From positions 80,495 through 144,494 of the forward strand of contig CAWJRV010000005.1 in the NCBI GenBank assembly GCA_963845355.1: a DNA stretch of 64,000 nucleotides. Direction: 5' to 3'. Shown in pieces: positions 18,759 through 64,000 of this stretch (position 1 is its first letter; each line of letters opens with the position of its first letter). A program made the position numbers and the translations under genes. Source of the stretch: an uncultured Actinomycetes bacterium. GTDB taxonomy: Bacteria; Actinomycetota; Thermoleophilia; UBA2241. A model generated the notes under the pieces. It searched no databases. It saw nothing but the letters and a program-made list of their open reading frames with translations, and was not told the origin of the DNA.

Positions 18759-20611
18759 ATGAGACGCACACGCATGTCGTGGCGTCGAGCGGTCCTGCTG
18801 GCGACGACGGTGATCCTCGTGGCCGGTCTCGCTGTGGGGTATCACTCGGCCCTCGCTTCGAGCGCCAGCCCGTCGCCGACCAGCGGCAAGGTCATCCTCC
18901 GGCTCGGCTGGACGGCCGGCCCGGACAACCTCAACCCGTTCATCGGCTCGAACTCGCAGGCGTTCACCGTCTGGTACATGAACTACGACACGCTCGTGGG
19001 TCTGAACACCACCGACGTGGCGCCAAACAAAACGACGGGGCTCGCCACCGACTGGACGACCAGCGCCCGACGGCAAGACCTGGACCTTCACCATCCGCAA
19101 GGACGCCAAGTGGCAGGACGGCCTGCCGCTGACCGCCGCCGACGTCGCCTGGACGTACAACTACATCGTCAAGAACAACATCGCCAACTGGACGAGCTAC
19201 ACGACGAACATCGTGCAAAGCGACGGCGCTCGACGCCTATACGGTGCGCATCGACTGCTCCGTCGCCTCAGCCGGCCCTGCTCGCCAACGTGGCCGAGGT
19301 GCCCATCCTGCCCGAGCACATCTGGGCGAAGATCCCGGCCAAGACGGCCATCCACACCTTCCCGAACACGCCGCCGATCATCGGCAGCGGGCCGTTCCAG
19401 TGCGTCCAGTGGAAGAAGTCGAACTACCTCGTGATGCAGGCCAACAAGAGCTACTGGCGCGGCGCCCCGCACGTCGACGACGATCGTCTTCGAGGAGTAC
19501 ACCAACGCCGACACAATGGGCGAGGACATGAAGTCGGGCGCCATCGACGGCTGCACCGGCCTGCTCCAGGCGCAGATGCAGATGCTCGTCGCACATGCCC
19601 GGCGTTGAAGTCAGGCCGGTGTACGTCAACGGCTACGACGAGCTCGGCTTCAACTGCTACACCGGCGGTCCGTCGCTGGGCAACCCCGTCCTCAAGGACT
19701 GGCGGTTCCGCCAGGCGCTGCAGTGGGCGGTCGACAAGAACAAGCTCTGCGCGATCGCCTACGGCGGCATGGCCAAGCCGGCCGACACGATCATCACCGC
19801 CAACTACTACCGCAACCCCGACTGGCACTGGACGCCGCCGGCCGACCAGGCCTACAGCTTCAACCTGGCCAAGGCCTCGCAGATGCTGACCGCCGCCGGC
19901 TACAAGCTGGTCAACGGCGTGCGCCTGAACAAGCAGGGCAAGCCGATCTCGCTGCGGCTCTACGCCCGCAGCAGCTACCAGCAGAGCATCACTTGCGGCG
20001 AGTTCATCACCGGCTGGTTCCGCCAGCTCGGCCTCAAGGTCACCCTCTCGACGCTCGACGACGGCGCGCTCGAGAGCGACCTGTACAACACGGTCAAGGG
20101 CGTCTTCACGCCCAACTACGACATGTACGAGTGGGGCTGGTACAACGACGTCGATCCCGGCCCGTCCTCAGCCTACTTCACGACCGCGCAGATCAACAAC
20201 GAGAGCGACTGCGCCTGGTCGGATCCGCTCTACGACGCCACCTACAAGGCGCAGTCGACCGAGATGGACCTCGCCAAGCGGCTGCAGCTCGTCTACAAGT
20301 GCCAGCAGATCATCTACCAGCAGTCGCCCTATATCCCGCTGGCCTACTCCGACGACACCGAGGCCTGGAACACCTCGCGGTGGACCGGCTGGGTGCAGAT
20401 GCCCGCCAACGTGGGCAACGTCGTCGTGCCGCCGTACGGTTATGAGACATACTTCTCCGTCAGGCCCAAGACGGGCAGCGGCGGGACCCCGGCGGGCCTG
20501 ATCGGGGTGCTCGTCGTCGCCGGCATAGTGGTGGTCGCGGTCGTGGGCGGCGGGCTCTATACGCTCATCAAGCGGCGCACGCGCGCGTCCGACGTGCCGC
20601 TCGAGGAGTGA
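18759..20611 (+). pseudogene. Family-5 solute-binding protein (DppA/OppA-like) with C-terminal TM anchor, disrupted by at least four frameshifts
   Basis: Signal peptide + VILRLGWTAGPDNLNPFIGSNSQAFTVWYMNYDTLVG. The reading frame jumps near 19065, 19215, 19490 and 19600. The C-terminal 338 aa is intact and ends in a TM helix (LIGVLVVAGIVVVAVVGGGLY). Confidence 0.75.
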
Positions 20612-20798: not shown

Positions 20799-22185
20799 AT
20801 GAAGCGGTTTCTGTTGGGACTCTCGTGTACCGCGCTGGTCGTGGCGGGGGCGGCCGTCTGGGCGGGCGCGGCGGCGGCCGCGACCAGACCGGCCACCCAC
20901 ACCGACCCGCTCGTGACCACGCTTCCGGCCGCGGGCGTGCGCCCGGCTCTCGGCGACCGTCCGTTCCACGGCACGACGGTCACCTCGTCTAACTGGTCGG
21001 GCTACGACGACTCGACCGACGGTCCGTTCACCACGGTCACGGCCACCTGGGTTCAGCCGCGCGTGCGCACGACCGGCGCGACCTTCTCCGATGCCGCCTT
21101 CTGGGTGGGCCTCGACGGCGACAACTCCGACACGGTCGAGCAGATCGGCACCGAAGGCTATAGCGAGGGCGTCGCCGGCTACGACGCCTGGTATGAGATG
21201 TATCCGCTCTACCCGGTGACCATCGACATGGCCGATCCACGCCGGCGACGTGCTCACCGGCACCGTCACCTTCGCCGCGCCGGCGAGCCTTCACGCTGAC
21301 CCTCGTCAACCACACGAGGGGTAAGTCGTACACCGACCGGACAGATCATGGGCATCCCGCCCGCAGCTCGCGTCGGCCGAGGCGATCGCCGAGGCGCCGA
21401 TCGCGACAGCAGCGGCGACGTCGTGGCGTCGTCCGACTTCGGCATCGTCAGGTTCAGCGGTTGCACGTTCGACAACCAGCCGATCGGCACCTTCGACTGG
21501 AACCAGCATCGACATGACCTCCGAGTACAGCGGCGGCCTCGTGGCGCAGACCTCGGCACTCGGCGCCGACGGCGACGAGCTTCAGCGGTGACGACCGACG
21601 TGACACCGACCGACACGACGGTGCTCGGGCGCCGGCTCGGCTGGCACGACAAGGCGGTGAGGCTGCACCTCCGGGCCATCGACAACCGCGGTGGTCTGGG
21701 CGTGGCCTACACGCGAGTACTCGCTCGACGACGGCGCGACCTGGGCGAACGGGCGACCGCGTCACGGTGCCCGCCCCGGCCGATCACAGCGCCGACGGCG
21801 TCGACAAAGTCGTCTATCGCTCGGCCGACAAGGCGGGCAACATCGAAGCAAAGCGCGTCAGCCGTGCTCATCGACACGCGCCGGCCACGCCCGTCGCCAA
21901 ATGGCCGGCGTCCGCCGTCGCGGCGCTCGCACCGCCTTGCGCTTCTACGTGGCGACCCGCGCCCGGGCAGCCCCACGGCGACCGTCACGATCCGCATCCA
22001 CAACGCCCACGGCGCGCTCGTCAAGAAGGTCGTGCTGCCCGGCGGTCAGGGTCGACACCGTCGGTGGACTACGACTTCACCTGCTGGCTGCCCAAGGGCG
22101 CCTACAGGTTCGCCGTCGCCGCCACCGACGCGGCCGGCAACGCGCGCAGACGGCGCGGCCGCCAACACGCTGGTGGTGCGCTGAT
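20799..22185 (+). pseudogene. Peptidase-G1 (eqolisin/scytalidoglutamic peptidase)-like secreted protein with Ig-like C-terminal module, multiply frameshifted paralog of 41045..42610
   Basis: Signal peptide. SNWSGY, AAFWVGLDGD, VEQIGTEGY and YDAWYEMYP motifs. Downstream pieces in three frames: GVAYTEYSLDDGATW…DHSADG…YRSADKAGN…DPRPGSPTATVTIRIHNAHGALVKKVV…ATDAAGN. Confidence 0.7.
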
Positions 22186-22263
22186 GCGCCGCCGCACCGA
22201 GGGCGTCCGGCGAAATCGTCGACGCCGTTCTGAGTCCCGGTTCCGTCGTAAGGGGGTCTGCAC

Positions 22264-25037
22264 ATGAAGCGCGCCTGGCTCGTTGCCTGCATCGCCGCTG
22301 GCCGCGTGGCGCCTGGCGGCCGTTGGGGCCCCTCCGGCTCAGGCCCTCGTGCCCGACGGCGGGCACGGCTGGTTCTGGCAGATGCCGCAGCCCGCGACCG
22401 GTCTGAGCGACGTCACGTTCGCGCGCCGGGCAGTACTGGGCGGTCGGCGTGGGCGGAACCATCCTGCACAGCACCGACGGCGGCGCTCACCTGGGCGGCG
22501 CAGCCGACCGGCTCCGACGCCGACCTCTGGTCGGTCAGCTTCGCCGACGCCCAGCACGGCTGGGTCGGTCGGCGCACGGCGCGGGAACCGGCGACGCCTG
22601 ATCCTCGCCACCACCAACGGCGGCGCCGCCTGGACCGACGAGACGCCGGGCGGCCTGACCGATTGGCTCACCAACGCGAGCTTCGTCGACGCCGCACACG
22701 GCTGGATCGGCACCAACGACGGCAAGGTCCTCAAGACCAGCGACGGCGGCGGCACCTGGCAGACGCTGAAGCGTCGCCGCCGCCTACAAGGGCTACCTCA
22801 CGGTCGACTTCGTCGATGCCACGCACGGCTGGGCGGGCGGCACCAGCGGCCGCATCTGGACGACGGTCGACGGCGGCGCGACCTGGACGGCCCTCCCGCG
22901 CGGCTCTGACGGCCCGGACATGCGGTCGTCGTCCAGCTCGATTTCGTCGATCGCCGCGACGGTTGGGTGCTCGGCCAAGACACTATGGCGACTCCGTGGT
23001 CATGACGACCAACGACGGCGGGCGCTTCTGGCGCCCGGTACCGACTGGGGACCGTCCACGACCGGCATCTACGCCGCGAGCGCGGGCGACGTCTGGCTCG
23101 TCGGCCAGGACTGGATGGACTACGACGATTCTCAGGCTCCGACCATCTGAAGCACTCGAGTGACGGCGGGTTCACTCTGGAAGACGTCGACGATCAGCGC
23201 GCCGGCCATGCCCTACGCGATCGCGGCGGGCGGCGGTTCGGTCTGTGCCGTGGGCGACGGCATCCTCGTCTCCGGCGACGATGGGGCGACCTGGCAGTCG
23301 GGCAGCTCGGGCCAGCAGTACTGGTTCGCCGGAGCCGACGCGGTCTCGGCGACCGACGTGTGGGCGGTCGACTCCGCCGGCGCCCTGTTGCACAGCACCG
23401 ACGGCGTGCGCTTCGCCGAGCAGCCCGATCTGGTCCGGGGGGCGATCGCGCTCATGGGGGTCAGCTTCCCCAACGCCAGCGACGGCTGGGTGGTGGGAGC
23501 CAGCGACCAGTGGGGTGACGGCAGCGTGATCCTCCACACGAGCGACAGCGGCGCGACCTGGGGTCCGCAGCAGTCCAACCTGGGCGGCGAGCTCGACGGC
23601 GTCGATTTCATCGACGCGCACACCGGCTGGGCGATCAGCGACGACAACTCCGGGTGGAACGCGGGGGCCAACCTCACGATGCAGCACACGACCGACGGCG
23701 GCGTCACCTGGATCCCCAGTTCGTCGCCGGCAACACCGCGCTCAGCGCGGTCGACTTCGTCGACGCCTCGACGGGTTGGGCGGCCGGCGGTGTGTATTCG
23801 GAGGGCAATCCCGCGGCGGCGGTCTTCGCCTCGACCGACGGCGGCTTCACCTGGACCAGGGAGAAGCTGCCCAAGGGCGCTCCCGCCATCACCGGGCTGC
23901 AGTTCCTGAACAAAAGCGACGGCTGGGCCGTCGGCACGAGCTGGACGCTGGACGACGCCACCGACACCGCCACGTCGGATCAGGGCTGGGTGCTGCACAC
24001 CACCGACGGTGGCGCGACGTGGCAGCTCGTGTCCGATCTCGACGACAGCCTGGCCACCACGGTGCACTTCAGCGACTCGAGCAACGGCTGGGTCGGAGGC
24101 CTGAACGGCGTCTATGCCACCACCGACGGCGGCTCGACCTGGCAGCGTGTCGCCGCGGGCGACGGGGTCGAAGCCATCGCCGCCACCGACGCCCAGCACG
24201 TGTGGGCGTTCGGCGACGGCTTTCTCGTGTCGACGCTCGACTCGAACGGCGACTCCGCCGCTCCCGTGACCCTCGATCCACACAACGACTCCGTCTGGCG
24301 CAACAAGACGGTGACCATCGGCTTGCTGGCCAACGACGTCGGCGGCTCGGGCGTCGCCGGAACGCAGACCAGCCTCGACGGCGGACGCCTGGCAGCCCGG
24401 CGCGTCCATCGTTGTGCCGGCCTACGCGGACCACCACTTCGACGGCACGCACACGATCCTCTACCGCTCCGCCGACAACGCCGGAAACCAGGAGCAGACG
24501 GAGAGTCTGACGGTCGGCGTCGACACGCTGGGCCCTGCCTGCTCCGTCCCCCGCACGAGCGTCGTCGACGCCGGTAGCCGCGGGCCGCTGTTCTTTATGG
24601 CGACCGACGAGAACAGCGGGGTCAAAGAGGCGACGATCACGATCGTCGGGGCTCACGGTCGCGTGCTGCGCAGATTCGTCGAGCACGCGGGCGACTGGGG
24701 CGCCTCCCCGTCGCCCTCCTACTACTGGACGCGGTTCAACTGCACGCTGAAGCCCGGCACCTACCGCGTCGAGGTGCATGCCGACGACTGGGCGGGCAAC
24801 CGCCAGGTCACGGTGGGTCACGGTGTGCTGCGGGTGGTACGCCGCGGGGCTCCCGAGTTCTCGCCACCGTGGTGGCCATCCGGCTTGCCCTCCGAGTCCA
24901 TGGGTACCCGCCTGAACCACGGTCTGCGGCCGGCCTGGCTGTTGCGCCAGCCCGGCAGCCCGACCGTCGTGCACGCGGCGTCGCATCGCGGCGCCTGGAA
25001 GGCCCAGCACTGGCCGGAGGTCCGCGCGAAGCGCTAA
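22264..25037 (+). pseudogene. Ycf48/BNR-type beta-propeller secreted protein (possibly a double propeller) with the same C-terminal module, at least eight frameshifts
   Basis: Repeated blades of the form …HGW.VG..GTIL.TTDGGATW… spread over all three + frames. The C-terminal part reads …HTILYRSADNAGNQE…ATITIVGAHGRVLRRF…GTYRVEVHADDWAGN. Confidence 0.65.
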
Positions 25038-25219: not shown

Positions 25220-26554
25220 ATGAGATATTGCCCCAACTGCGAGCTCTCCATCGGTGAGACGGCGACGTTCTGCGCGACCTGTGGCGCGCGGGTGCCGAAT
25301 GTAGCCGCGACCCGGCAGTCACCCTCGCCGCCTGCGTCCGCCGCAGCGGTACCGGACGCGCCGCCGTCTGACTCCGTCAGCCCGGTCGCTCCACCGCCGG
25401 TGGCGGTCCTCATCTCCCCTCAGGGGGTGCTCCTGGCAGCTCCTCCCGTGGCGGCCGGCACTGCGCCGGTCGTGGCTGCGGCCGCGCCGGCAACGGCGTT
25501 TCCGGCCGCGCCGGCGACCGCGTTTCCGGCCGCGCCGGCCATGGCGTTTCCGGCCGCGTCGAGCAGGACGCCGGCGATGCCGACCGCGACGGGCGGTGCG
25601 ACCGCGATGCCGACCGCAACGGGCAGTGTGACCGCAGAGCCGCTTTTGCCACCGCCGCCGGCGCCCGCTTCCGAGGCGCCTCCAGCGCCGGCAGCCGAGC
25701 CCGCGCCGGTCGCTTGCAGGATCTGTGGACGCACGGCGTCCGCCGTCGAGAACGAGGGTGTGTGCCACGCGTGTCGGGCCGACCTGGACCTCTTTGTGGC
25801 GGCCGGCGCGTCGGAATCTGCCGGAGTGAGCCTCGCGGGCAACGTGTCGACCGGCGGTCGTCAACGCCTCACCGCAAGCAATGCGATCTACTCGGCGCTG
25901 GCCGACGACGACACGTGCCCCGAGTGCCGCGCCATGGATGGTCGCGAGACAAGCGACATCGCCGCCGCCGCAGGTTGGGCACCGAACCGGCAGTGCCGCA
26001 GCCCGCAAGGTTGCCGCTGCGCGGTCTTTTACGAGCACGAGAGCCTGGCCGCCGGCGAAGAGCCCGCCTTCATAGACTATGTCGCCGCTCATGGCCTGCA
26101 CGTCACGGCTCCCGCCGTGAGCGCCTTCCGCGGCGAGACGCACAGGCTCAGGCAGACCGCCGCTCACCTCGACGATGCCTCGCGGTCGCTCGCCGAGGCG
26201 CGCACGTTGGAGAAAGTCGACCCGCAACAGGCGGTCGCACGGTATCGTCGAGCTATCGACAGCCTCCTGGCCTGCGGCCAAGAGCCTCTCGACGAGCGCT
26301 GCGTCAGGCGCGATCTGCCCCTGGCGTTCAACCGGCTCACCCTGGTGCTCAAGGCTCTGGGCCGTCGCAGCGAGGCTCTCGACGAGATCGAGCGCGCGGT
26401 GGCAACGGGGATCCTCGAGCGCGATGACTGCGGCAGGAAGGCAGATCGGGACGCCCTCCTGAACCGCCGTCGACGGCTGCAAGAGGGCCTGACCGCGACC
26501 GACTCTGCCCCCCGCCACCGTCTGACCGCGACCGCCGCCGCCAGGCAGCGCTAG
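25220..26554 (+). CDS. Zinc-ribbon protein with Pro/Ala-rich repeat linker and a phage-Mu-F/SPP1-gp7-like Cys motif
   Basis: N-terminal double zinc ribbon YCPNCELSIGETATFCATCGARV. Tandem-repeat linker. Second ribbon CRICGRT…CHACR. Then TCPECRAMDGRETS…GWAPNRQCRSPQGCRCAVFYEHE, resembling the MuF C…C…dG…HPnCRC motif. Helical C terminus. Confidence 0.6.
   Translation: MRYCPNCELSIGETATFCATCGARVPNVAATRQSPSPPASAAAVPDAPPSDSVSPVAPPPVAVLISPQGVLLAAPPVAAGTAPVVAAAAPATAFPAAPATAFPAAPAMAFPAASSRTPAMPTATGGATAMPTATGSVTAEPLLPPPPAPASEAPPAPAAEPAPVACRICGRTASAVENEGVCHACRADLDLFVAAGASESAGVSLAGNVSTGGRQRLTASNAIYSALADDDTCPECRAMDGRETSDIAAAAGWAPNRQCRSPQGCRCAVFYEHESLAAGEEPAFIDYVAAHGLHVTAPAVSAFRGETHRLRQTAAHLDDASRSLAEARTLEKVDPQQAVARYRRAIDSLLACGQEPLDERCVRRDLPLAFNRLTLVLKALGRRSEALDEIERAVATGILERDDCGRKADRDALLNRRRRLQEGLTATDSAPRHRLTATAAARQR
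25484..25555. repeat. 3 x 24-bp in-frame tandem repeat encoding (APATAFPA)x3; adjacent 2 x 30-bp repeat at 25575..25634
   Basis: Units gcgccggcaacggcgtttccggcc / gcgccggcgaccgcgtttccggcc / gcgccggccatggcgtttccggcc. Confidence 0.8.
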
Positions 26555-39529: not shown

Positions 39530-40961
39530 TCACAGGTCCTCCTGCTCGAAACGTGGGGAACGGCGCGGAAACAGCCAGACGCGAAACAGCGCGAAGCGCA
39601 GCAGCGTCGCCGTCACGTTGGCGCGCACCAGCACGGCGAGCTCGAGCGCGCGCGCCGCGGCGGGTCTGAGCGCTGCAGGATGAACAGGCTGCCGCTGGTC
39701 ACCGCGAGGCCAAGGGCGAACACGACGAGGCCCTGGCCCTGGTGTCGCAGCCGCCTCGCCGGGCCGCGCACGCCGAACGTGAGGCGCCGGTTCGCGGCGG
39801 TGTTGGCGATCGCCGTCACGAGCAGCGCCAGGGCGTTGGCCCACTGGGCCGGACATGATCTCGCGCGCCAGCAGGTAGAGCGAGCAGGTAGGCCAGCGTG
39901 CTGACCACCCCGATCAAGCCGAATCGCAGGAGCTGACCGGCCAGCTTCGCCGGCGCTGCTCCGCCGGCGCCGGAGCGCCAGTCGCGCGGGTCGCGCGGGT
40001 CGCGCGGGGCCGGCAAGGCCAGCTTGCCGCTCCTGAGCGTACGACTGAGCCGGGCGATGCCCTTGAGGTCGGCCACCGCCGTCGCGACGATGTCGACGCG
40101 CGAGTCGGGGTCGTCGACCCAGTCGACCGGGACCTCGTGGATGCGCAGGCCGGCGCGCTCGGCCAGCACCAGCAGCTCGGTGTCGAAGAACCAGCCGGTG
40201 TCCTCGACCAGAGGCAGGAGCTCCGCGCGCCCGGTCGGCGCGGATCGCCTTGAAGCCGCACTGAGCGTCGGAGAAGCGGGCGCCGAGCGCCGCATGCACG
40301 AGCAGGTTGTAGCAGCGTGAGATCGAACTCGCGCTTGGCGCCGCGCACCACGAACGACGTGCGTGAGAGCCGCGTGCCGATGGCGAGGTCGGAGTGTCCC
40401 GAAAGCAGCGGCGCGACCAGGGGTAAGCAGGGCGGCCAGGTCGGTCGAGAGGTCGACGTCCATGTAGGCGAGCACGGCGGCGTCGCTTGCCGCCCACACG
40501 GTATGCAACGCTCGTCCGCGGCCCTTGGCGTCGAGATGGACGGCGCGCACGCCGGGCAGCGCATCGGCCAGTGACTGGGCGATGGGCCAGGTGCCGTCGG
40601 TGCTCGCGTTGTCGGCGATGGTGATGCGAAAGGTGAACGGCAGGTTCCGCGAGAGGTAGTCGTGCAAGCGAGTCACGCCTCGGGCCAGATCTCTCTCCTC
40701 GTTGAACACGGGCACCACCATGTCGACCGCCGGGGCCGGCGCCGACGCCGGCTTTGCCGCCGGAGCGTGGCCCTCGCCGCGAGGGGTGAGCGGCCGGGAG
40801 AGGAAGGCTGCCCCGGAACGTCGCGCGTCGCGGGGTGCCCTTGCCGTGTCGGGTGAGGATGCCGTCGTCATGGCAGTCAAGGTATCCGCCCGCCCTGAGG
40901 CCTCCCTGAAGCCCGGCTGGGAGGTTCCTGTGACGACGGCGGACTCCAACGGGGCTCTCAT
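39530..40961 (-). pseudogene. GT2 polyprenyl-phosphate-sugar synthase (Dpm1/Ppm1-like) fused to GtrA-like domain, frameshifted
   Basis: VVPVFNEERDL…ITIADNASTDGT…LDAKGRGRALHTVWAASDAAVLAYMDVDLSTDL…, with the continuation in another frame. GtrA-like C terminus LAGQLLRFGLIGVVSTLAYL…ANTAANRRLTF…, again in another frame. Confidence 0.65.
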
Positions 40962-41044
40962 TTGCCGCGCCCCGACCGCGACGACTACACTGATAGGCCG
41001 TCAAGGGCGAGAGCGGGTGCGAGAGCGCTCGGGTCCGCTTCTCG

Positions 41045-42610
41045 TTGCGGAACTGCTGGAGGGCTTACGTGAGACGCTGGAAGACGGCGCTGTCACCGAT
41101 CGTGCCGGCGCTGTGCCTCGCGAGTGTGCCAGCCCTGGCCGGCGCGGCCGGTGTCCCCCCGGCGTGGGCGAGCTCGCCGCTCGCCGTATCGACACTCGCC
41201 GCCTCGACTCCGACCTCTGCGGGTGTGGGCCTGCCGGTGCCGTCGCCGGGCTGGGTGCTGCCGGCGGGGTTCGTGCAGCCGGGCGGTCCCCTGCGGCCGA
41301 GCGGCGCCTTGCAGCCGGGCGGGGTAGCGCAGCCTCTCGGCCGGTCGTTGTCGCAGCGCGGCACGCGCAGCGAGTCGCCCAACTGGTCGGGCTACGACGT
41401 GACCGGCGGGCCGTTCACGAGCGTCACGGCGACCTGGACCCAGCCGCGCGTGCGGCCCAGCGCCGACTTCACCGATGCCGCCTTCTGGGTGGGGCTCGAC
41501 GGCGACAGCGCCGACCCTTCGGTCCCTTCGCAGACCGTCGAGCAGATCGGGACCGAAGGCTACACGCTGCAGGGTGTGCACTACGACGCTTGGTATGAGA
41601 TGTATCCCGACTACGCCCACTACATCACCTTCGGTAAGGGCAAGGCCAAACACCTCATGGGCATCCGCCCCGGCGACGTCATCACGGCGAGCGTCACCTG
41701 GAACGGCACGTCCAGTTTCACGCTGTCGCTTGTCGACAAAACGACCGGCCGCTCGTTTTCGACCGTCCAGCCGATCGCCAAGGGTGCCCCCCAACCGGAG
41801 CGTTCGTCGGCCGAGGTGATCGCCGAGGCGCCCTCGCTGAGCGACGGCTCATTGCTCTCGGTAGCCAACTTCGGGCTGGTGCGGTTTCGTGGCTGCGCCT
41901 TCGACGACCAGCCGATCGGAGCGTTCGACTGGTCTCGCATCGACATGGTCTCCTGGGACTCTCACGCCACCGAGGTCGCTACCTCGGCGCTGAGTCCCGA
42001 CGGCACCGCCTTCGACGGTACCACCGATTTTCGGCGGCCGGTGACGACGGTCGCCCATACTCCTGCCTGGGTCAGCCAACCCGTGACGCTGCGTTTCAAG
42101 GCCTCCGACAACCCGGGCGGCACAGGCGTCGCCTACACCCAGTACTCACTCGACGGCCAGGCGACCTGGACGAACGGCACGTCGGTCACACTGCCGGCCC
42201 CAGGCGACCATTCCGCCGACGGCCCGGCGACGGTCTGGTACCGTTCAGCCGACAAGGCCGGCAACCTCGAAAGGGCGCACCGTTACGTCGTGCACATCGA
42301 CACCCGCAGGCCCACGGCGGTGGCGCAGTGGCCGGCAGCCACGACGCGCGGCGGCCGGGCGCTTCTGCGCTACTTCGTCGGCGATCCCCGGCCGGGCAGC
42401 CCGACGGCTACCGTGACGATCAGGATCCGCGCCAAGGGCGGAGCCCTCGTGAAGAAGATCGTGCTGGCCGGCAGGCCGGTCGACACAAGTCTCTCCTGCG
42501 GGTTCGCCTGCTCGTTCGCCAGGGGCGTCTACCGGGTCGTCGTGTCGGCCACCGACACCGCCGGCAACCCTTCGACGGCGTCGGCGACCACCACGCTGAC
42601 CGTGCGCTGA
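41045..42610 (+). CDS. Secreted peptidase-G1 (glutamic peptidase/eqolisin)-like protein with Ig-like plus DPRPGSPTATVTI C-terminal module (intact)
   Basis: Signal peptide. SPNWSGYDVTGGPFTSVTATWTQP, AAFWVGLDGDS, VEQIGTEGY, YDAWYEMYP. Then GVAYTQYSLDGQATWTNG…DHSADGPATVWYRSADKAGNLE…IDTRRP, and DPRPGSPTATVTIRIRAKGGALVKKIVL…GVYRVVVSATDTAGN. Confidence 0.75.
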   Translation: MRNCWRAYVRRWKTALSPIVPALCLASVPALAGAAGVPPAWASSPLAVSTLAASTPTSAGVGLPVPSPGWVLPAGFVQPGGPLRPSGALQPGGVAQPLGRSLSQRGTRSESPNWSGYDVTGGPFTSVTATWTQPRVRPSADFTDAAFWVGLDGDSADPSVPSQTVEQIGTEGYTLQGVHYDAWYEMYPDYAHYITFGKGKAKHLMGIRPGDVITASVTWNGTSSFTLSLVDKTTGRSFSTVQPIAKGAPQPERSSAEVIAEAPSLSDGSLLSVANFGLVRFRGCAFDDQPIGAFDWSRIDMVSWDSHATEVATSALSPDGTAFDGTTDFRRPVTTVAHTPAWVSQPVTLRFKASDNPGGTGVAYTQYSLDGQATWTNGTSVTLPAPGDHSADGPATVWYRSADKAGNLERAHRYVVHIDTRRPTAVAQWPAATTRGGRALLRYFVGDPRPGSPTATVTIRIRAKGGALVKKIVLAGRPVDTSLSCGFACSFARGVYRVVVSATDTAGNPSTASATTTLTVR

Positions 42611-58498: not shown

Positions 58499-59770
58499 TC
58501 AGCTCCGAGGGTCTCTGATCAGCGCCATGAACAGCGGGGCGGCGGTGGTCTTGTCGGTGAGCAGCAGAAGGAACGGGTGATCGGCGCGGATGGTGAGCGG
58601 CGCGAAGGGCGCAGAGCCCTCGGCGACGAGGGCGGCCGTCGCGGCCGCCGCCTCGACACCCGTTTCGTTGACGTTCAGCACGGCCTTGTGCACGACGCGC
58701 TGGATGTAGACGCGGCCCTGCGTGCCCGGCGCCACGATGCCCTGCAGCTCGGCCTGCGACGGCGAGAAGGCCGAGATCATGCCCAGGGCCTCCAGCTCGG
58801 GTTTCAGGTCGGGGCTCGAGAAGGCGGTGTGAAGGCGCGGCAGGTCGAGCATGACCTGGGCGGTCCGGGCGCCGCGATACAGCGCGTCCAGACCGCTCCG
58901 CTGAAACTGAGCGAGCAACGACTCGGGTGTCTGGCCGGAGCGCGGCACGACCACCCAGGCGGTGACCTGACCCTTGGTGGCGAGGGCCACAGCGTCGTAG
59001 CTCGGCGTCTGGGCCACCGGGCCGCTGACCGGCCCGTTCATCGTCGGCACGCTCACGGTACTGCCGTCGGCCAGGGTGAAGGGGGCCGCATGGGTCGCGC
59101 CGGCCGCGAACGGCACGCGCCAGTCGGCCTTGACGTGCACCGTGTTCACCACGGTGAGGATCGTCTGGTCGGTGAAGTAGCCGGGCTGGACGATCTGCTT
59201 GATCAGGTCGTTCGTACGCTGAGCGACCCAGTCGTTCACGGCGCCGGCAGCCTTGGAAGGGTCGGTCGGCAGCGGCTGCGTGCCGGCGGCATAGAAGGCG
59301 CGAGCGGCGTTGAGGAACGCCGGGTTGAACGCCACGCCGTCGCGCAGCCAGAGCGAATCGGCGATCTCGACCGCGGGCTTGCCGCCGGCTTGCGCCGAGG
59401 CGATGAGGTCGGCCCAGGCCTGGTTTGTGGCCGGCAGGGTCAGGCCGTCCAGGGCGAGCGCTCGGCGCATCTCGGTCGCGGTTTGCCCGGTGGCGCCGTT
59501 CAGCAGCAGCGAGAGCACGGCATGGATCGAGAGCGGCGAGATGACCACGTTGCCGCTGTCGTCACGCGCCTCGTCGGCCAGCAGGGCGAGACCGAAGCGG
59601 TCGAGCGGCGCGGCCAGCAGAGCAGCCTGGGTCGTGGCCGCGGGGTCGCCGCGGGCCGGGTTCAGGGGCGTCGCCGCGGCGCGGGTCGTGGCATGCAGCG
59701 TGGCGACGACCGCGACCGCGGCGCCACAGGTCGCGACGAGCACGATGGCGATGATGACGATGCGGCGCAT
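58499..59770 (-). CDS. Serpin (serine protease inhibitor) family protein, secreted
   Basis: VISPLSIHAVLSLLLNGATGQTATEM… and a C-terminal reactive-centre-loop/serpin signature …IRADHPFLLLLTD…PLFMALIRDP. Signal peptide. GGGGAGG RBS. Confidence 0.8.
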   Translation of the reverse strand: MRRIVIIAIVLVATCGAAVAVVATLHATTRAAATPLNPARGDPAATTQAALLAAPLDRFGLALLADEARDDSGNVVISPLSIHAVLSLLLNGATGQTATEMRRALALDGLTLPATNQAWADLIASAQAGGKPAVEIADSLWLRDGVAFNPAFLNAARAFYAAGTQPLPTDPSKAAGAVNDWVAQRTNDLIKQIVQPGYFTDQTILTVVNTVHVKADWRVPFAAGATHAAPFTLADGSTVSVPTMNGPVSGPVAQTPSYDAVALATKGQVTAWVVVPRSGQTPESLLAQFQRSGLDALYRGARTAQVMLDLPRLHTAFSSPDLKPELEALGMISAFSPSQAELQGIVAPGTQGRVYIQRVVHKAVLNVNETGVEAAAATAALVAEGSAPFAPLTIRADHPFLLLLTDKTTAAPLFMALIRDPRS

Positions 59771-59912
59771 GGCCCCTCCCCTTGTCTTGCGGAGCCTACC
59801 TACATTTTCCGTCTGCAAGGGAGAGACGCCGCGAGCCGCGCGGCGGTTCGCCGGACGCTCGGCGGGCGCACGCCGGCGGTTCGCCGGGCGCTCGCCGCCG
59901 GGCGCGAGGCTG

Positions 59913-60329: not shown

Positions 60330-60612
60330 CGTCTTCTCCTTCAAGCTCGAGGCGCGCGCCGGCGTCGGTGATCGGATGCTCCGCGGTGCACTCCCGCCAT
60401 GGCGGCCGGCATACTGCCGACGGCCTCGCTTGCGAGGCCCTGCCGGCCTAGCTATCCCCTTGCGAGGCGGCCGGAAACCGCGTTTGAGCGACACGCGTCG
60501 CTCCGTGCTAGGCTATCGGTGGGAGGGCCCTTATGCTGCGCGCAGCGCCGGTCAGGTGCGGGTCGCCCCAGGTTGAGTCAGTCGAGTGACCGCCGACAAA
60601 GGGAGGGAGACC

Positions 60613-62211
60613 GTGAAGCACGCTCCTCAGGTCTTGCTCATCGTCGCCGCGCTGACCGTCGCCATGAGCGCCGCCGTCGCCGCGGGCGCCGTCGGCGTAG
60701 CCGGCGCGGCGAGCGCGGCGAGCGCCACCGCCGCGGCGAGCGCCACCGCCGCGCGGGTCGGCTGGACGGCCCGCCAGGCAAGTTCCGACGCCCCCCTGCT
60801 GTCTGTCGCCACGACCGATGTGGCACACGCCTGGGCGGTCGGCCCCGGCCCGACCATCGTGGCCACCACCGACGGTGGTGCGACGTGGGCCCCCGAGGCG
60901 CCTGCGACCACGAACGACCTCTATGGCGTCACCTTCGCCGACGCCACCGACGGCTGGGCCGTCGGACCCGCCGGCACCGTGGTCGCCACCACCGACGGCG
61001 GCGCCGACTGGACGCCACAGAGCGTCCCGACATCGCAGACCCTGATCAGCGCGGCCAGCCGCGGTCAGAACGCCTGGGTGGTGGGGGCCGGCGGCACGAT
61101 CCTGGCCACCACCGACGGCGGCGCGACCTGGTCGGCACAGAGCGCGCCGCGCGGGCAGGACCTCTTCTCTGTGACGTTCGCCGACCCAGGCCACGGCTGG
61201 GCCGTGGGCGACGACGGCACCATCCTGGCCACCACCGACGGCGGCGCCGTCTGGACCGCTCAAAAGTCGCCGACCGCGGACTATCTGAACGGCGTGGCCT
61301 GCCAGGGTACGACACGCGCCTGGGCGGTCGGCGAGAAAGGGGTCATCCTGGCCACCAGCGACGGCGGTGCGCGCTGGCTGGTCCGTCGGGCGCCCCACGC
61401 CCACGCGCCCGATCTCTACACCGTCGACTTCGCCTCGAGGAGTCACGGCTGGGCGGTCGGACTCGGCGGCCTGATCCTGGCGACGGTCGACTACGGCAGA
61501 ACGTGGCGCGCGCAGCGCTCCCCCTCGGACCAGGTCTTCACCTCAGTGGACTTCACCGACCCGCTTCACGGCTTCGTCACTGAGATCACCGGCGCGGTGC
61601 TGACCACCACGACGGGGGGATGGTCCGACAAGCTGCCGCCGACCGTCTCCGCCACCGGTGTCGCGGGCTGGCATGGGCGCCCGTTCCATGTCCGGCTGCA
61701 GGCGGCCGACGGGCAGGGTTCTGGCGTGGCGACGGTGCAGTATTCGTTCGACCATCGCGAGACCTGGACGACGGGCGTCACGTTCGCGGTGGGGGCGCCG
61801 GCCGATCATAGCAGCGACGGTAGCCACGAATTCTGGGTGCGCGCCGTAGACAACGCCGGCAACGTCGCGCCCACCCGCGCCTTTCATGTGCGCATCGACA
61901 CGCGCCGCCCGGTGGCCAAGGCTCTGTGGGCGGGCCGGGCGGTCAGCGGTCAGCCGGCGGCTCTGCTCTGCGCCGTGAGCGATCCGCGCCCCGGCAGCCC
62001 GACGGCAACGGTCACGATCACCGTGCGGACGGCGTCCGGCCGGACGGTGAAGATCCTCAGGTTCGCCCGGCGCCCGGTGGGCCAGAAGCTGACCTGCCGC
62101 TTCCGCTGCACGCTGGCCGCGGGGCACTATCGCTTCTTCGTGTCGGCGACCGACGCGGCCGGCAATCGGGCCGCAGTCGCGGCCGCCAATAGCCTCACAG
62201 TCCTGCCGTAG
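60613..62211 (+). CDS. Secreted Ycf48/BNR-type beta-propeller protein with Ig-like plus DPRPGSPTATVTI C-terminal module (intact)
   Basis: Signal peptide. Seven or eight blades …HAWAVGPGPTIVATTDGGATW…. Then GVATVQYSFDHRETWTTG…DHSSDGSHEFWVRAVDNAGNVA…IDTRRP, and DPRPGSPTATVTITVRTASGRTVKIL…GHYRFFVSATDAAGN. GGGAGGGA RBS before the GTG. Confidence 0.75.
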   Translation: MKHAPQVLLIVAALTVAMSAAVAAGAVGVAGAASAASATAAASATAARVGWTARQASSDAPLLSVATTDVAHAWAVGPGPTIVATTDGGATWAPEAPATTNDLYGVTFADATDGWAVGPAGTVVATTDGGADWTPQSVPTSQTLISAASRGQNAWVVGAGGTILATTDGGATWSAQSAPRGQDLFSVTFADPGHGWAVGDDGTILATTDGGAVWTAQKSPTADYLNGVACQGTTRAWAVGEKGVILATSDGGARWLVRRAPHAHAPDLYTVDFASRSHGWAVGLGGLILATVDYGRTWRAQRSPSDQVFTSVDFTDPLHGFVTEITGAVLTTTTGGWSDKLPPTVSATGVAGWHGRPFHVRLQAADGQGSGVATVQYSFDHRETWTTGVTFAVGAPADHSSDGSHEFWVRAVDNAGNVAPTRAFHVRIDTRRPVAKALWAGRAVSGQPAALLCAVSDPRPGSPTATVTITVRTASGRTVKILRFARRPVGQKLTCRFRCTLAAGHYRFFVSATDAAGNRAAVAAANSLTVLP

Positions 62212-63231: not shown

Positions 63232-64000
63232 TCAGGCCTCTTCGACGCGCGGCCGCCGGCGCCGCAGCGCCAGGGCGACGGCGACGACCGCCGCCACGAC
63301 CACGAGCGCCGCGACGGCGACGATCAGCGCCGTGTCGCCCGAACCGCCGCCGGCCGTCGCGGTCCTGGGCTTCAGGTTCAGGTACGAGCCGATGAAGCCC
63401 TCGGCGTAGAAGGCCGGCCCGCTGCCGTCGAACATCTGCTGCCAGCCGGTCCACTTCGTCGTATTGTAGGCCTCGAGATAGTCGGGGTACGCGAGCACCA
63501 CCCAGGGCGTCTGCTGGTACATGATCTGCTGCATCTGGGAGATGGGCGTCTGGCGCGACTGGGGGTCGATGGTCGACGACTGCTGGGTGTTCAGCGCGTC
63601 GTATTGGGCGTTCGACCAGAAGGGCTCGTTCAGGCTCCCGATCTCGCTGGTGGTGAGGCAGCTGAGCGTCTGACCGGGGTCGAAGTAGCCGGTCCAGTCC
63701 CAGACCACCATGTCGAAGTCGGGCTTCCAGACGCTGCCGTGGGAGTTGTAGATGTCGGACGTGAGAGCGCCGTCGTCGACGATCGAGAGCTTGATCTTGA
63801 GTCCGAGGTCGTCGAGCCAGCCTGCGATGAGCTTGGCGTCGACCTGGTTCGGGTCGCTGTCGGTCGGGCTGTATAAGCGCAGCGTGATGGGCTTGCCCTG
63901 CTTGTTCAGGCGCACGCCGTTCTTCAGCGGATAGCCGGCCGCGGTGAGCAGCTGGCCGGCTCTCGGGGGTCGAACGTGTAGGCCTGGCCGGCCGGCGGCT
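63232..64000 (-). CDS. Family-5 solute-binding protein paralog, C-terminal part with TM anchor; extends beyond the window end and shows a frame change near 63916
   Basis: …RLNKQGKPITLRLYSP…WDWTGYFDPGQTLSCL…AYPDYLEAYNTTKWTGWQQM…, then a TM helix ALIVAVAALVVVAAVVAVAL. Clearly paralogous to 18759..20611. Confidence 0.6.
   Translation of the reverse strand, partial: AAGRPGLHVRPPRAGQLLTAAGYPLKNGVRLNKQGKPITLRLYSPTDSDPNQVDAKLIAGWLDDLGLKIKLSIVDDGALTSDIYNSHGSVWKPDFDMVVWDWTGYFDPGQTLSCLTTSEIGSLNEPFWSNAQYDALNTQQSSTIDPQSRQTPISQMQQIMYQQTPWVVLAYPDYLEAYNTTKWTGWQQMFDGSGPAFYAEGFIGSYLNLKPRTATAGGGSGDTALIVAVAALVVVAAVVAVALALRRRRPRVEEA

Follow-up and report, generated by a model that had tools for sequence, protein, structure and literature searches.

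Immunoglobulin (Ig)-like repeats of the Big_13 family are recognised elements of rods and stalks, and the usual C-terminal end of a Gram-positive stalk protein is a wall-attachment motif (PMC9704523). The wall-binding domains of monoderm bacteria have been catalogued and include SLH, CWB2, and LysM (PMC5817068). The subject of the present analysis is a two-domain module, domain A followed by domain B, carried by four genes in a 64,000-nucleotide (nt) stretch of DNA (the window) from an uncultured soil or peat Actinomycetes bacterium of the Thermoleophilia (assembly GCA_963845355.1, contig CAWJRV010000005.1, positions 80,495 to 144,494; coordinates below are those of the window). In each gene the module follows an N-terminal domain, the head, that differs between genes. 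Most of what was found is ordinary, in that Ig-like accessory domains are shuffled among secreted proteins. The new part is domain B, which is unnamed, present as a single C-terminal copy, uniformly cationic, and looks like an attachment element.

Four copies of a two-domain module

A sequence-only reading of the window had claimed that four genes end in one module of ~180 amino acids (aa). When the last 196 aa of the 41045..42610 protein were used as a tblastn query against the window, matches were obtained at 61624..62202 (45% identity, E 2.5e-42), at 24263..24800 spread over two frames (E 4.5e-19), and at 21642..22129 spread over three frames (E 1e-14 to 3e-13), with no further match in the window at E < 0.01. 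Separate hidden Markov models (HMMs) for the two domains, run on the translation of all six frames of the window, found exactly four copies of A and four of B. Once frameshifts are corrected, the four C-terminal modules still align from end to end over ~190 aa at 34-60% pairwise identity, which is too low for the copies to be recent duplicates. The claim of a shared module thus stands for four A+B copies, with the amendments that the fourth protein continues past domain B and that two of the genes are broken by frameshifts in this assembly.

A resemblance of this kind could also arise as an artefact, by chance likeness, duplication during assembly, or a recent gene conversion without modular meaning, and two of the four copies do lie in a stretch rich in errors or frameshifts. 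Such an artefact is hardly credible in view of E-values down to 1e-42, the divergence of the copies, and the recurrence of these loci, their genes intact, in roughly a dozen independent metagenome-assembled genomes (MAGs).

The module genes and their domains, assigned from open reading frames (ORFs), Pfam and NCBIfam profiles, the domain HMMs, and an AlphaFold2 (AF2) model, are as follows (pI, isoelectric point):

41045..42610, + strand: intact gene, 521 aa; signal peptide, Peptidase_A4 head (aa 112-302), A, B, stop (ORF, Pfam)
42035..42316, + strand: domain A of 41045..42610, OmpL47-type / Big_13 Ig-like; NF047446 54.7 bits, domain-A HMM 145 bits, AF2 beta-sandwich
42329..42607, + strand: domain B of 41045..42610, cationic terminal Ig-like domain, net charge +10, pI 11.45; the protein ends ...LTVR
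60613..62211, + strand: intact gene, 532 aa from GTG 60613; signal peptide, Ycf48/BNR-type beta-propeller, A, B (ORF)
61636..61914, + strand: domain A of 60613..62211; NF047446 51.7 bits (cut-off 40), domain-A HMM 125.3 bits
61927..62208 (HMM match 61927-62202), + strand: domain B of 60613..62211, 130.9 bits; net charge +12, pI 11.8
20799..22185, + strand: Peptidase_A4 head, A (~21615-21890), B (~21936-22181); frameshift-disrupted (HMM pieces in three frames)
22264..25037, + strand: double Ycf48/BNR-type propeller, A (~24263-24536), divergent B′ (24564-24836), 65-aa basic tail (24837-25034) (three-frame translation)

Heads of two kinds, resembling family G1 peptidases and BNR/Ycf48 propellers, had been proposed from the sequence, and profile searches bear out both. 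Peptidase_A4 (PF01828, family G1; cut-off 22.3) matches the 41045..42610 protein at 102.9 bits and the 5′ ORF of 20799..22185 at 55.8 bits. In the former, two residues match the catalytic dyad of scytalidopepsin B (1s2b): the Gln of VEQIG lines up with Q53, and the last Glu of AEVIAE with E136. An orthologue with 81% identity and the identical layout is found at locus L002. The frameshifted ORF 21348..22184 of the second peptidase gene corresponds to an existing database entry (P0013). The head of 60613..62211 matches Pfam PSII_BNR at 124.9 bits (cut-off 27), and PSII_BNR also matches three ORF pieces of 22264..25037. A true Ycf48 identity was rejected for the 60613..62211 head (132.1 bits on the NCBIfam equivalog NF010237, against a cut-off of 326), and by these scores the head is a Ycf48-like propeller rather than Ycf48. 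Translation could also begin at GTG 60586, giving 541 aa; the start at 60613 is favoured because the orthologue at L029 begins MKHARRVLL....

Both intact window proteins stop 0-2 aa past domain B (...LTVR and ...LTVLP). The 22264..25037 protein is not ended by B, since a conserved 65-aa tail rich in Arg, Trp, and Pro comes after it, and intact double-propeller orthologues (919-970 aa) have the same tail. The DPRPGSPTATVTI of the consensus that had been proposed for B is absent from the fourth copy, which has DENSGVKEATITIV in its place. From these comparisons the fourth module is judged to be a separate, divergent subtype. A basic Trp/Arg/Pro-rich tail of ~60-78 aa after B′ was seen in the double-propeller subtype alone (window 24837-25034; loci L011-L014, L021, L022). 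It carries the motif GAPxF..P.WPxGL ... RPAWLLR ... HWP and matches none of the families tested.

Identity of domains A and B

According to profile scores, domain A is a member of an already named family (OmpL47-type / Big_13), in agreement with the resemblance to OmpL47-type Ig domains suggested by the sequence-only reading. The cut-off of 40 bits for NCBIfam NF047446 (OmpL47-type beta-barrel domain) is exceeded by 41045..42610 (54.7), 60586..62211 (51.7), and the ORF 24414..25037 of the fourth gene (42.1); domain A of 20799..22185 is split by frameshifts and was detected solely by the in-house HMM. Three of the whole proteins also exceed the gathering cut-off of 27 bits for Pfam Big_13 (PF19077), with 39.7, 28.1, and 31.8 bits, and a Big_13 match is present in 44 of 47 members of the wider family.

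Domain B, taken alone, stayed under every cut-off. Three B domains scored 22.3, 25.2, and 13.7 bits against Big_13 (cut-off 27), matches to FlgD_ig (PF13860) reached 13-16 bits (E 0.01-0.1; cut-off 27), and no NCBIfam model was reached. Of the earlier suggestion that B resembles a FlgD-type Ig fold, a weak similarity and an Ig-like sandwich are thus retained, at scores well below family membership. Treatment of B as one more A repeat was rejected, as hhalign aligns the two over just 21 columns, corresponding to the 'G.Y..V.A.D.AGN' hairpin (probability 70%). A PDB sequence search likewise returned the AGN hairpin as its sole match, to SiiE. In structure prediction, the AF2 model of the 41045..42610 module consists of two beta-sandwiches (pLDDT 90) and resembles tandem Fn3/BIg rods, including CbhA (3pdd) and SiiE (2yn3, TMq 0.62). 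Because just the hairpin is common to both domains, B is best classified as a separate, unnamed member of the broad Ig-like superfamily (Ig/PKD/Fn3-type sandwich), and would be at best a divergent relative of Big_13.

A single, terminal, and cationic domain

The properties of B were determined on 93 near-full-length domains from the motif-scan and HMMER sets described below. Each of the 93 proteins carries one copy, and in 84 of them B ends no more than 5 aa from the C-terminus. For these domains the medians are +12 (net charge) and 11.4 (pI), and 100% of them are above pI 9. A domains (n = 1893) have a median net charge of -5 and pI of 4.4, the parts of the proteins upstream of B have a median pI of 4.7, and the window heads of 41045..42610 and 60613..62211 have a pI of about 4.7-4.8. 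Two controls set the scale for these values: in the 102 top hits that lack B, the C-terminal 95 aa have a median net charge of 0, and random 95-aa stretches upstream in B carriers have a median of -6, with 0.8% reaching +6. The 46 B domains outside the close subfamily are no exception (median +15, Lys and Arg about equal). Acidic residues in B are nearly limited to two conserved Asp and one Asn/Asp position, and the last residue is basic in 80% of cases. Among ten sequences of the subtype represented by the fourth gene, B′ has a net charge of +1 to +11 and the tail contributes a further +2 to +10 (+5 or more in nine; +2 in L009, which has a short, divergent tail). Paralogues of 45% identity elsewhere have the loop DPRPGSPTATVT unchanged.

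A 'C.F.C' pattern had been included in the earlier consensus for B and has to be given up, as just one Cys is conserved. This single unpaired residue, in the F.C.L motif of B (HMM column 61; e.g. window 42329-42607), is present in 82% of the 93 domains, and roughly one domain in two has a lone Cys. Possible roles of the conserved residue are those of a core residue buried in the fold, a reactive site, or a metal-binding site.

Profile searches and inspection of the C-termini agree with the sequence-only reading that the module proteins of the window have neither an LPXTG motif nor an SLH domain; a C-terminal hydrophobic segment is also absent from them. Whether the module is a named anchor of known function was checked as well, and no wall-anchor family matched: SLH, LysM, CWB1/2, GW/SH3, WXL, and SPOR gave no Pfam match with the window proteins at E up to 0.1 or with B alone at E up to 10, and there was no wall-binding family among the 17 families found in a census of 31 ORFs (E up to 1e-5) or among the 25 most frequent of 39 in the wider family. 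Within the best 150 representatives of that wider family, 44 proteins end in B, and eight without B end in transmembrane- or LPXTG-like signals. A C-terminal hydrophobic segment was found in none of the 48 B carriers in this set, and a signal-like N-terminus is present in 34 of the 38 B carriers that begin with Met.

The best reading of these features, held tentatively and at slightly less than even confidence, is that the proteins consist of a signal peptide, a head, an Ig stalk, and an electrostatic anchor. They would be Sec-secreted proteins of one layout, with a signal peptide, a functional head (an acid-type glutamic peptidase or a Ycf48-like propeller), one A domain, and a terminal B. 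Domain A, repeated 1-17 times in the wider family, would form an acidic rod-like stalk. Domain B would most likely be a sortase-independent, non-covalent tether that binds anionic cell-envelope polymers electrostatically, so that the acidic head would be displayed near the cell. We infer from the domain's properties both that B binds a ligand of this nature and that the proteins remain on the cell. The role in surface display or substrate recognition that had been presumed for the module is made more specific by the charge asymmetry, which falls short of proving it.

The same charge could instead belong to a passive appendage that assists spacing, stability, solubility, or folding, with B merely offsetting the acidity of the head. 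Both domains are generic beta-sandwiches without a specific functional match, and many secreted hydrolases bear Ig, PKD, or Fn3 domains for which no ligand is known. A passive role is nevertheless unlikely, because the charge of B is extreme and universal across the 93 domains and adjoins acidic A repeats. The near-exclusion of acidic residues, the invariance of the DPRPGSPTATVT loop, and the addition of a separate basic tail in the subtype of the fourth gene also argue against it.

By analogy with type IX secretion C-terminal domains or pre-peptidase C-terminal domains, B might alternatively be a C-terminal sorting signal, recognised by a secretion or attachment machinery of its own and taken off afterwards. 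The position of a single Ig-like domain at the extreme C-terminus, its frequently basic last residue, the weak similarity to FlgD_ig, and the prior annotation of a few relatives as PF13860 would fit such a signal. It is an improbable explanation, because the close family resides in Actinomycetota/Thermoleophilia MAGs, the proteins have ordinary N-terminal signal peptides, and clustering of the neighbours at 35 related loci and the window found no gene, apart from those for the module proteins themselves, that is common to the three genomic contexts described below. Moreover, B has no Por_Secre_tail or pre-peptidase C-terminal (PPC) match at E up to 10. Membership in the type IX C-terminal domains (CTDs) was rejected on the missing Por_Secre_tail match and on the close relatives, all of them Actinomycetota/Thermoleophilia MAGs, the machinery itself not having been searched for genome-wide.

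Exchange of heads among relatives

Relatives were collected in two ways, by scanning one genome per species for the motif RPG[SPA]PTATVT and by a complete HMMER search of 1.84 billion representative proteins for matches to the module profile. Word-indexed searches were unfit as a census, as they returned 13 hits with the module and fragments of no more than 178 aa with the B profile. The motif scan found 34 loci, at most five of them in any one genome; every locus belongs to a MAG that bears the label Actinomycetota, Actinomycetes, or Thermoleophilia and stems from a palsa, bog, or soil project. A look-up of the window proteins by exact sequence returned no record in public assemblies. The best relative is an 81%-identical module in MAG MFD01188.bin.1.141, and at most of the 34 loci the module-bearing ORF stops no more than 2 aa past the matched module. 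Heads identified among the 31 ORFs scanned comprise 15 Peptidase_A4, eight PSII_BNR, and one each of FG-GAP, CarboxypepD_reg/SdrD_B, and PLD-like; the metagenomic relatives additionally include one tandem-A protein and one head without a Pfam match. In P0009 and P0012, the same A+B module follows an N-terminal domain that contains VSPKVILATLQKEQGLLS. No Pfam family matches this domain, even with E allowed up to 10, and it hence constitutes a further head type.

The HMMER scan returned 34,520 hits at E up to 1e-3, of which 2,806 lie at or below 1e-30, with giant proteins containing dozens of A repeats at the top ranks. The 48 B carriers among the best 150 representatives have 1-17 A repeats per protein and heads that include FG-GAP, PSII_BNR, Peptidase_A4, legume lectin, and CHB_HEX_C_1. 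Look-up of cluster members for names and taxa in this wider family gave 'hypothetical protein' or nothing, and every carrier of B is an uncharacterised protein from metagenomes. The proposal of swappable N-terminal domains is therefore upheld by heads as different as Peptidase_A4, PSII_BNR, FG-GAP, lectin, and PLD, among others, and the diversity extends well beyond the host lineage. As judged from domain composition, joining of A+B to different heads by domain shuffling is confirmed.

The main rival to an anchor is the binding of an external polymer. B, or A and B together, would then act much like a carbohydrate-binding module, targeting a substrate or matrix and docking the enzymes on anionic polymers of the environment rather than on the cell's own envelope; uronic-acid-rich plant or Sphagnum walls, humic material, extracellular DNA, and biofilm matrix are candidates. 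The same charge data fit this too, the MAGs in which the close subfamily occurs are those of peat, bog, palsa, and soil, and the heads are mostly hydrolases or binders of the lectin and propeller types. Even so, the same type of B follows protease, propeller, FG-GAP, lectin, and PLD heads, and because these heads are so different, a shared attachment site is more likely than a single shared substrate. Modules that bind substrates often lie within a protein or occur in several copies, whereas a single copy at the extreme C-terminus behind a stalk of variable length has the geometry of an anchor. Targeting of an external polymer is accordingly rated as rather unlikely, though it is the strongest of the alternatives.

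Several points also weigh against the electrostatic anchor itself. All close relatives are 'hypothetical proteins' from metagenomes. Domain B lies outside the catalogue of monoderm wall-binding domains, and its fold has no precedent there as an anchor (PMC5817068). A domain with such a positive charge could just as well attach to an anionic substrate outside the cell or balance an acidic head, and the HMM for B was built from basic sequences, which may have biased retrieval towards basic relatives. The stalk is short in the window proteins because each has one A domain.

A broader form of the anchor reading is possible but doubtful. It holds that B represents an undescribed class of sortase-independent envelope anchor in uncultured Actinomycetota of soil and peat (Thermoleophilia and their relatives) as well as in further uncultured bacteria, all of which would use it to display exoenzymes or adhesins on Big_13 stalks, with the lineage-invariant DPRPGSPTATVT loop as the ligand site. 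If B is a true electrostatic anchor, it would be a new entry in the short list of ways in which Gram-positive-type cells retain proteins at their surface, and would concern abundant uncultured soil and peat lineages whose cell surfaces are essentially uncharted. It would also provide a sequence rule for recognising surface-displayed enzymes, namely a terminal Ig-like domain with pI > 9 after acidic Big_13 repeats; such enzymes would include acid-type glutamic peptidases, suited to acidic peat. If B is merely a passive Ig-like appendage, the finding reduces to routine domain shuffling.

Frameshifts in two of the genes

Frameshift-aware alignment of 20799..22185 calls for ~17 frame changes between 21237 and 22185, at sites outside homopolymers, and 22264..25037 is also split over several frames. 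The G+C content of the window is 70%. A frame plot of G+C at third codon positions shows the coding phase flipping every few hundred bases or less at ~18.7-24.4 kb and 33-40.9 kb, and the remainder of the window, including both intact module genes, is clean. Functionally unrelated genes are broken in the flip stretches (SBP_bac_5, both module genes, and GT2/GtrA at 39613-41004).

Intact orthologues of both broken module genes, of ~458 aa and ~945 aa (919-970 aa), exist in related MAGs (L014, L012, L009). Among the closest relatives are both long-read MAGs, with labels of the form MFD..., and short-read MAGs from peat. Local consensus error in a long-read MAG is therefore the simplest, and a probable, explanation of the frameshifts. 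Real, clustered pseudogenes would be a less simple alternative.

Gene neighbourhoods

The module genes occupy three kinds of locus, whose neighbourhoods are conserved yet mutually unrelated: SBP_bac_5, a Peptidase_A4-module gene, a double-propeller-module gene, and a gene for a zinc-ribbon protein; GT2/GtrA, a Peptidase_A4-module gene, and DedA/VTT and HAD genes; and serpin, Usp, a propeller-module gene, and TetR. Clustering of the neighbours recovered lineage synteny only. Scans of the window for tRNAs and Rfam families gave no match.

In the first neighbourhood (20799-25037), the Peptidase_A4-module gene is followed on the same strand, after a gap of 78 nt, by the double-propeller gene (~900 aa). 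The pair is found at ten loci from nine MAGs (L004, L006, L009-L014, L021, L022) in addition to the window, and its conservation suggests a joint function of protease and propeller protein. Immediately past the double-propeller gene, in five loci from five genomes (the window and four related MAGs), comes an ORF (25220-26554 in the window, 444 aa) with an N-terminal zinc-ribbon, an extended low-complexity region rich in Ala and Pro, and a further motif that resembles a double zinc-ribbon. C-terminal pieces of two paralogous family-5 solute-binding proteins (SBP_bac_5) are located at 19595-20611 (+ strand) and 63232-63915 (- strand). Each has a hydrophobic segment and then basic residues at its end, an arrangement that suggests a binding protein anchored in the membrane and not a lipoprotein. 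Both appear to lack their 5′ part, in at least one case because of frameshifts.

The serpin gene (58499-59818, - strand) is full-length (Pfam Serpin, 264.6 bits) and lies two genes upstream of the propeller-module gene, a position kept at seven loci from seven genomes (the window and six related MAGs). Adjacent to genes for secreted proteins, it may have a role in the control of extracellular proteolysis. O-glycosylation of the invariant Pro/Ser/Thr-rich loop was considered on account of adjacent GT2/GtrA and YkcB-like genes and remained conjecture; that neighbourhood occurs solely beside the 41045 Peptidase_A4 locus, in the genomes that share the locus (five, by the GT2 cluster).

Comparison with known surface and secretion systems

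Domain A has its closest described counterparts in Leptospira OmpL47 and the BIg repeats of Salmonella SiiE. It scores above the curated cut-offs for NF047446 and Big_13, the module model superposes on the SiiE BIg tandem, and the 'G.Y..V.A.D.AGN' motif is common to both. The window proteins differ from OmpL47 and SiiE in having a single A rather than an array, in belonging to Actinomycetota MAGs rather than spirochaetes or enterobacteria, and in placing A behind enzyme heads rather than within a giant adhesin.

For domain B, the described Ig-like relatives are more distant. It shares a small Ig-like sandwich with the FlgD Ig-like domain, to which its similarity is weak, and with the type IX secretion CTDs, which likewise occupy the extreme C-terminus of secreted proteins. 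The PKD and PPC domains of bacterial and archaeal peptidases (4xed, ColH PKD 4u7k) differ from B in sequence (16-17% identity, no Pfam PKD or PPC match), and B is attached to many non-protease heads as well. The principle proposed for B, a basic terminal region on anionic wall polymers, is that of GW modules, the wall-binding regions of Lactobacillus S-layer proteins, SLH, CWB2, and LysM. B has no sequence match to these cationic wall-binding regions, its fold is an Ig/PKD-like sandwich, and its own binding is a proposal.

In overall layout the closest parallel is with LPXTG-anchored 'periscope' stalk proteins, which share a signal peptide, an N-terminal head, an Ig-like stalk of variable length (1-17 A domains in the relatives that terminate in B), and a C-terminal attachment element. 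The module proteins differ from these in having no LPXTG motif, hydrophobic segment, or charged tail of that kind; a folded, cationic Ig-like domain is found at the C-terminus instead, and attachment through it would be non-covalent. Domain B would thereby take the place that the LPXTG signal holds in the classical stalk proteins of Gram-positive bacteria.

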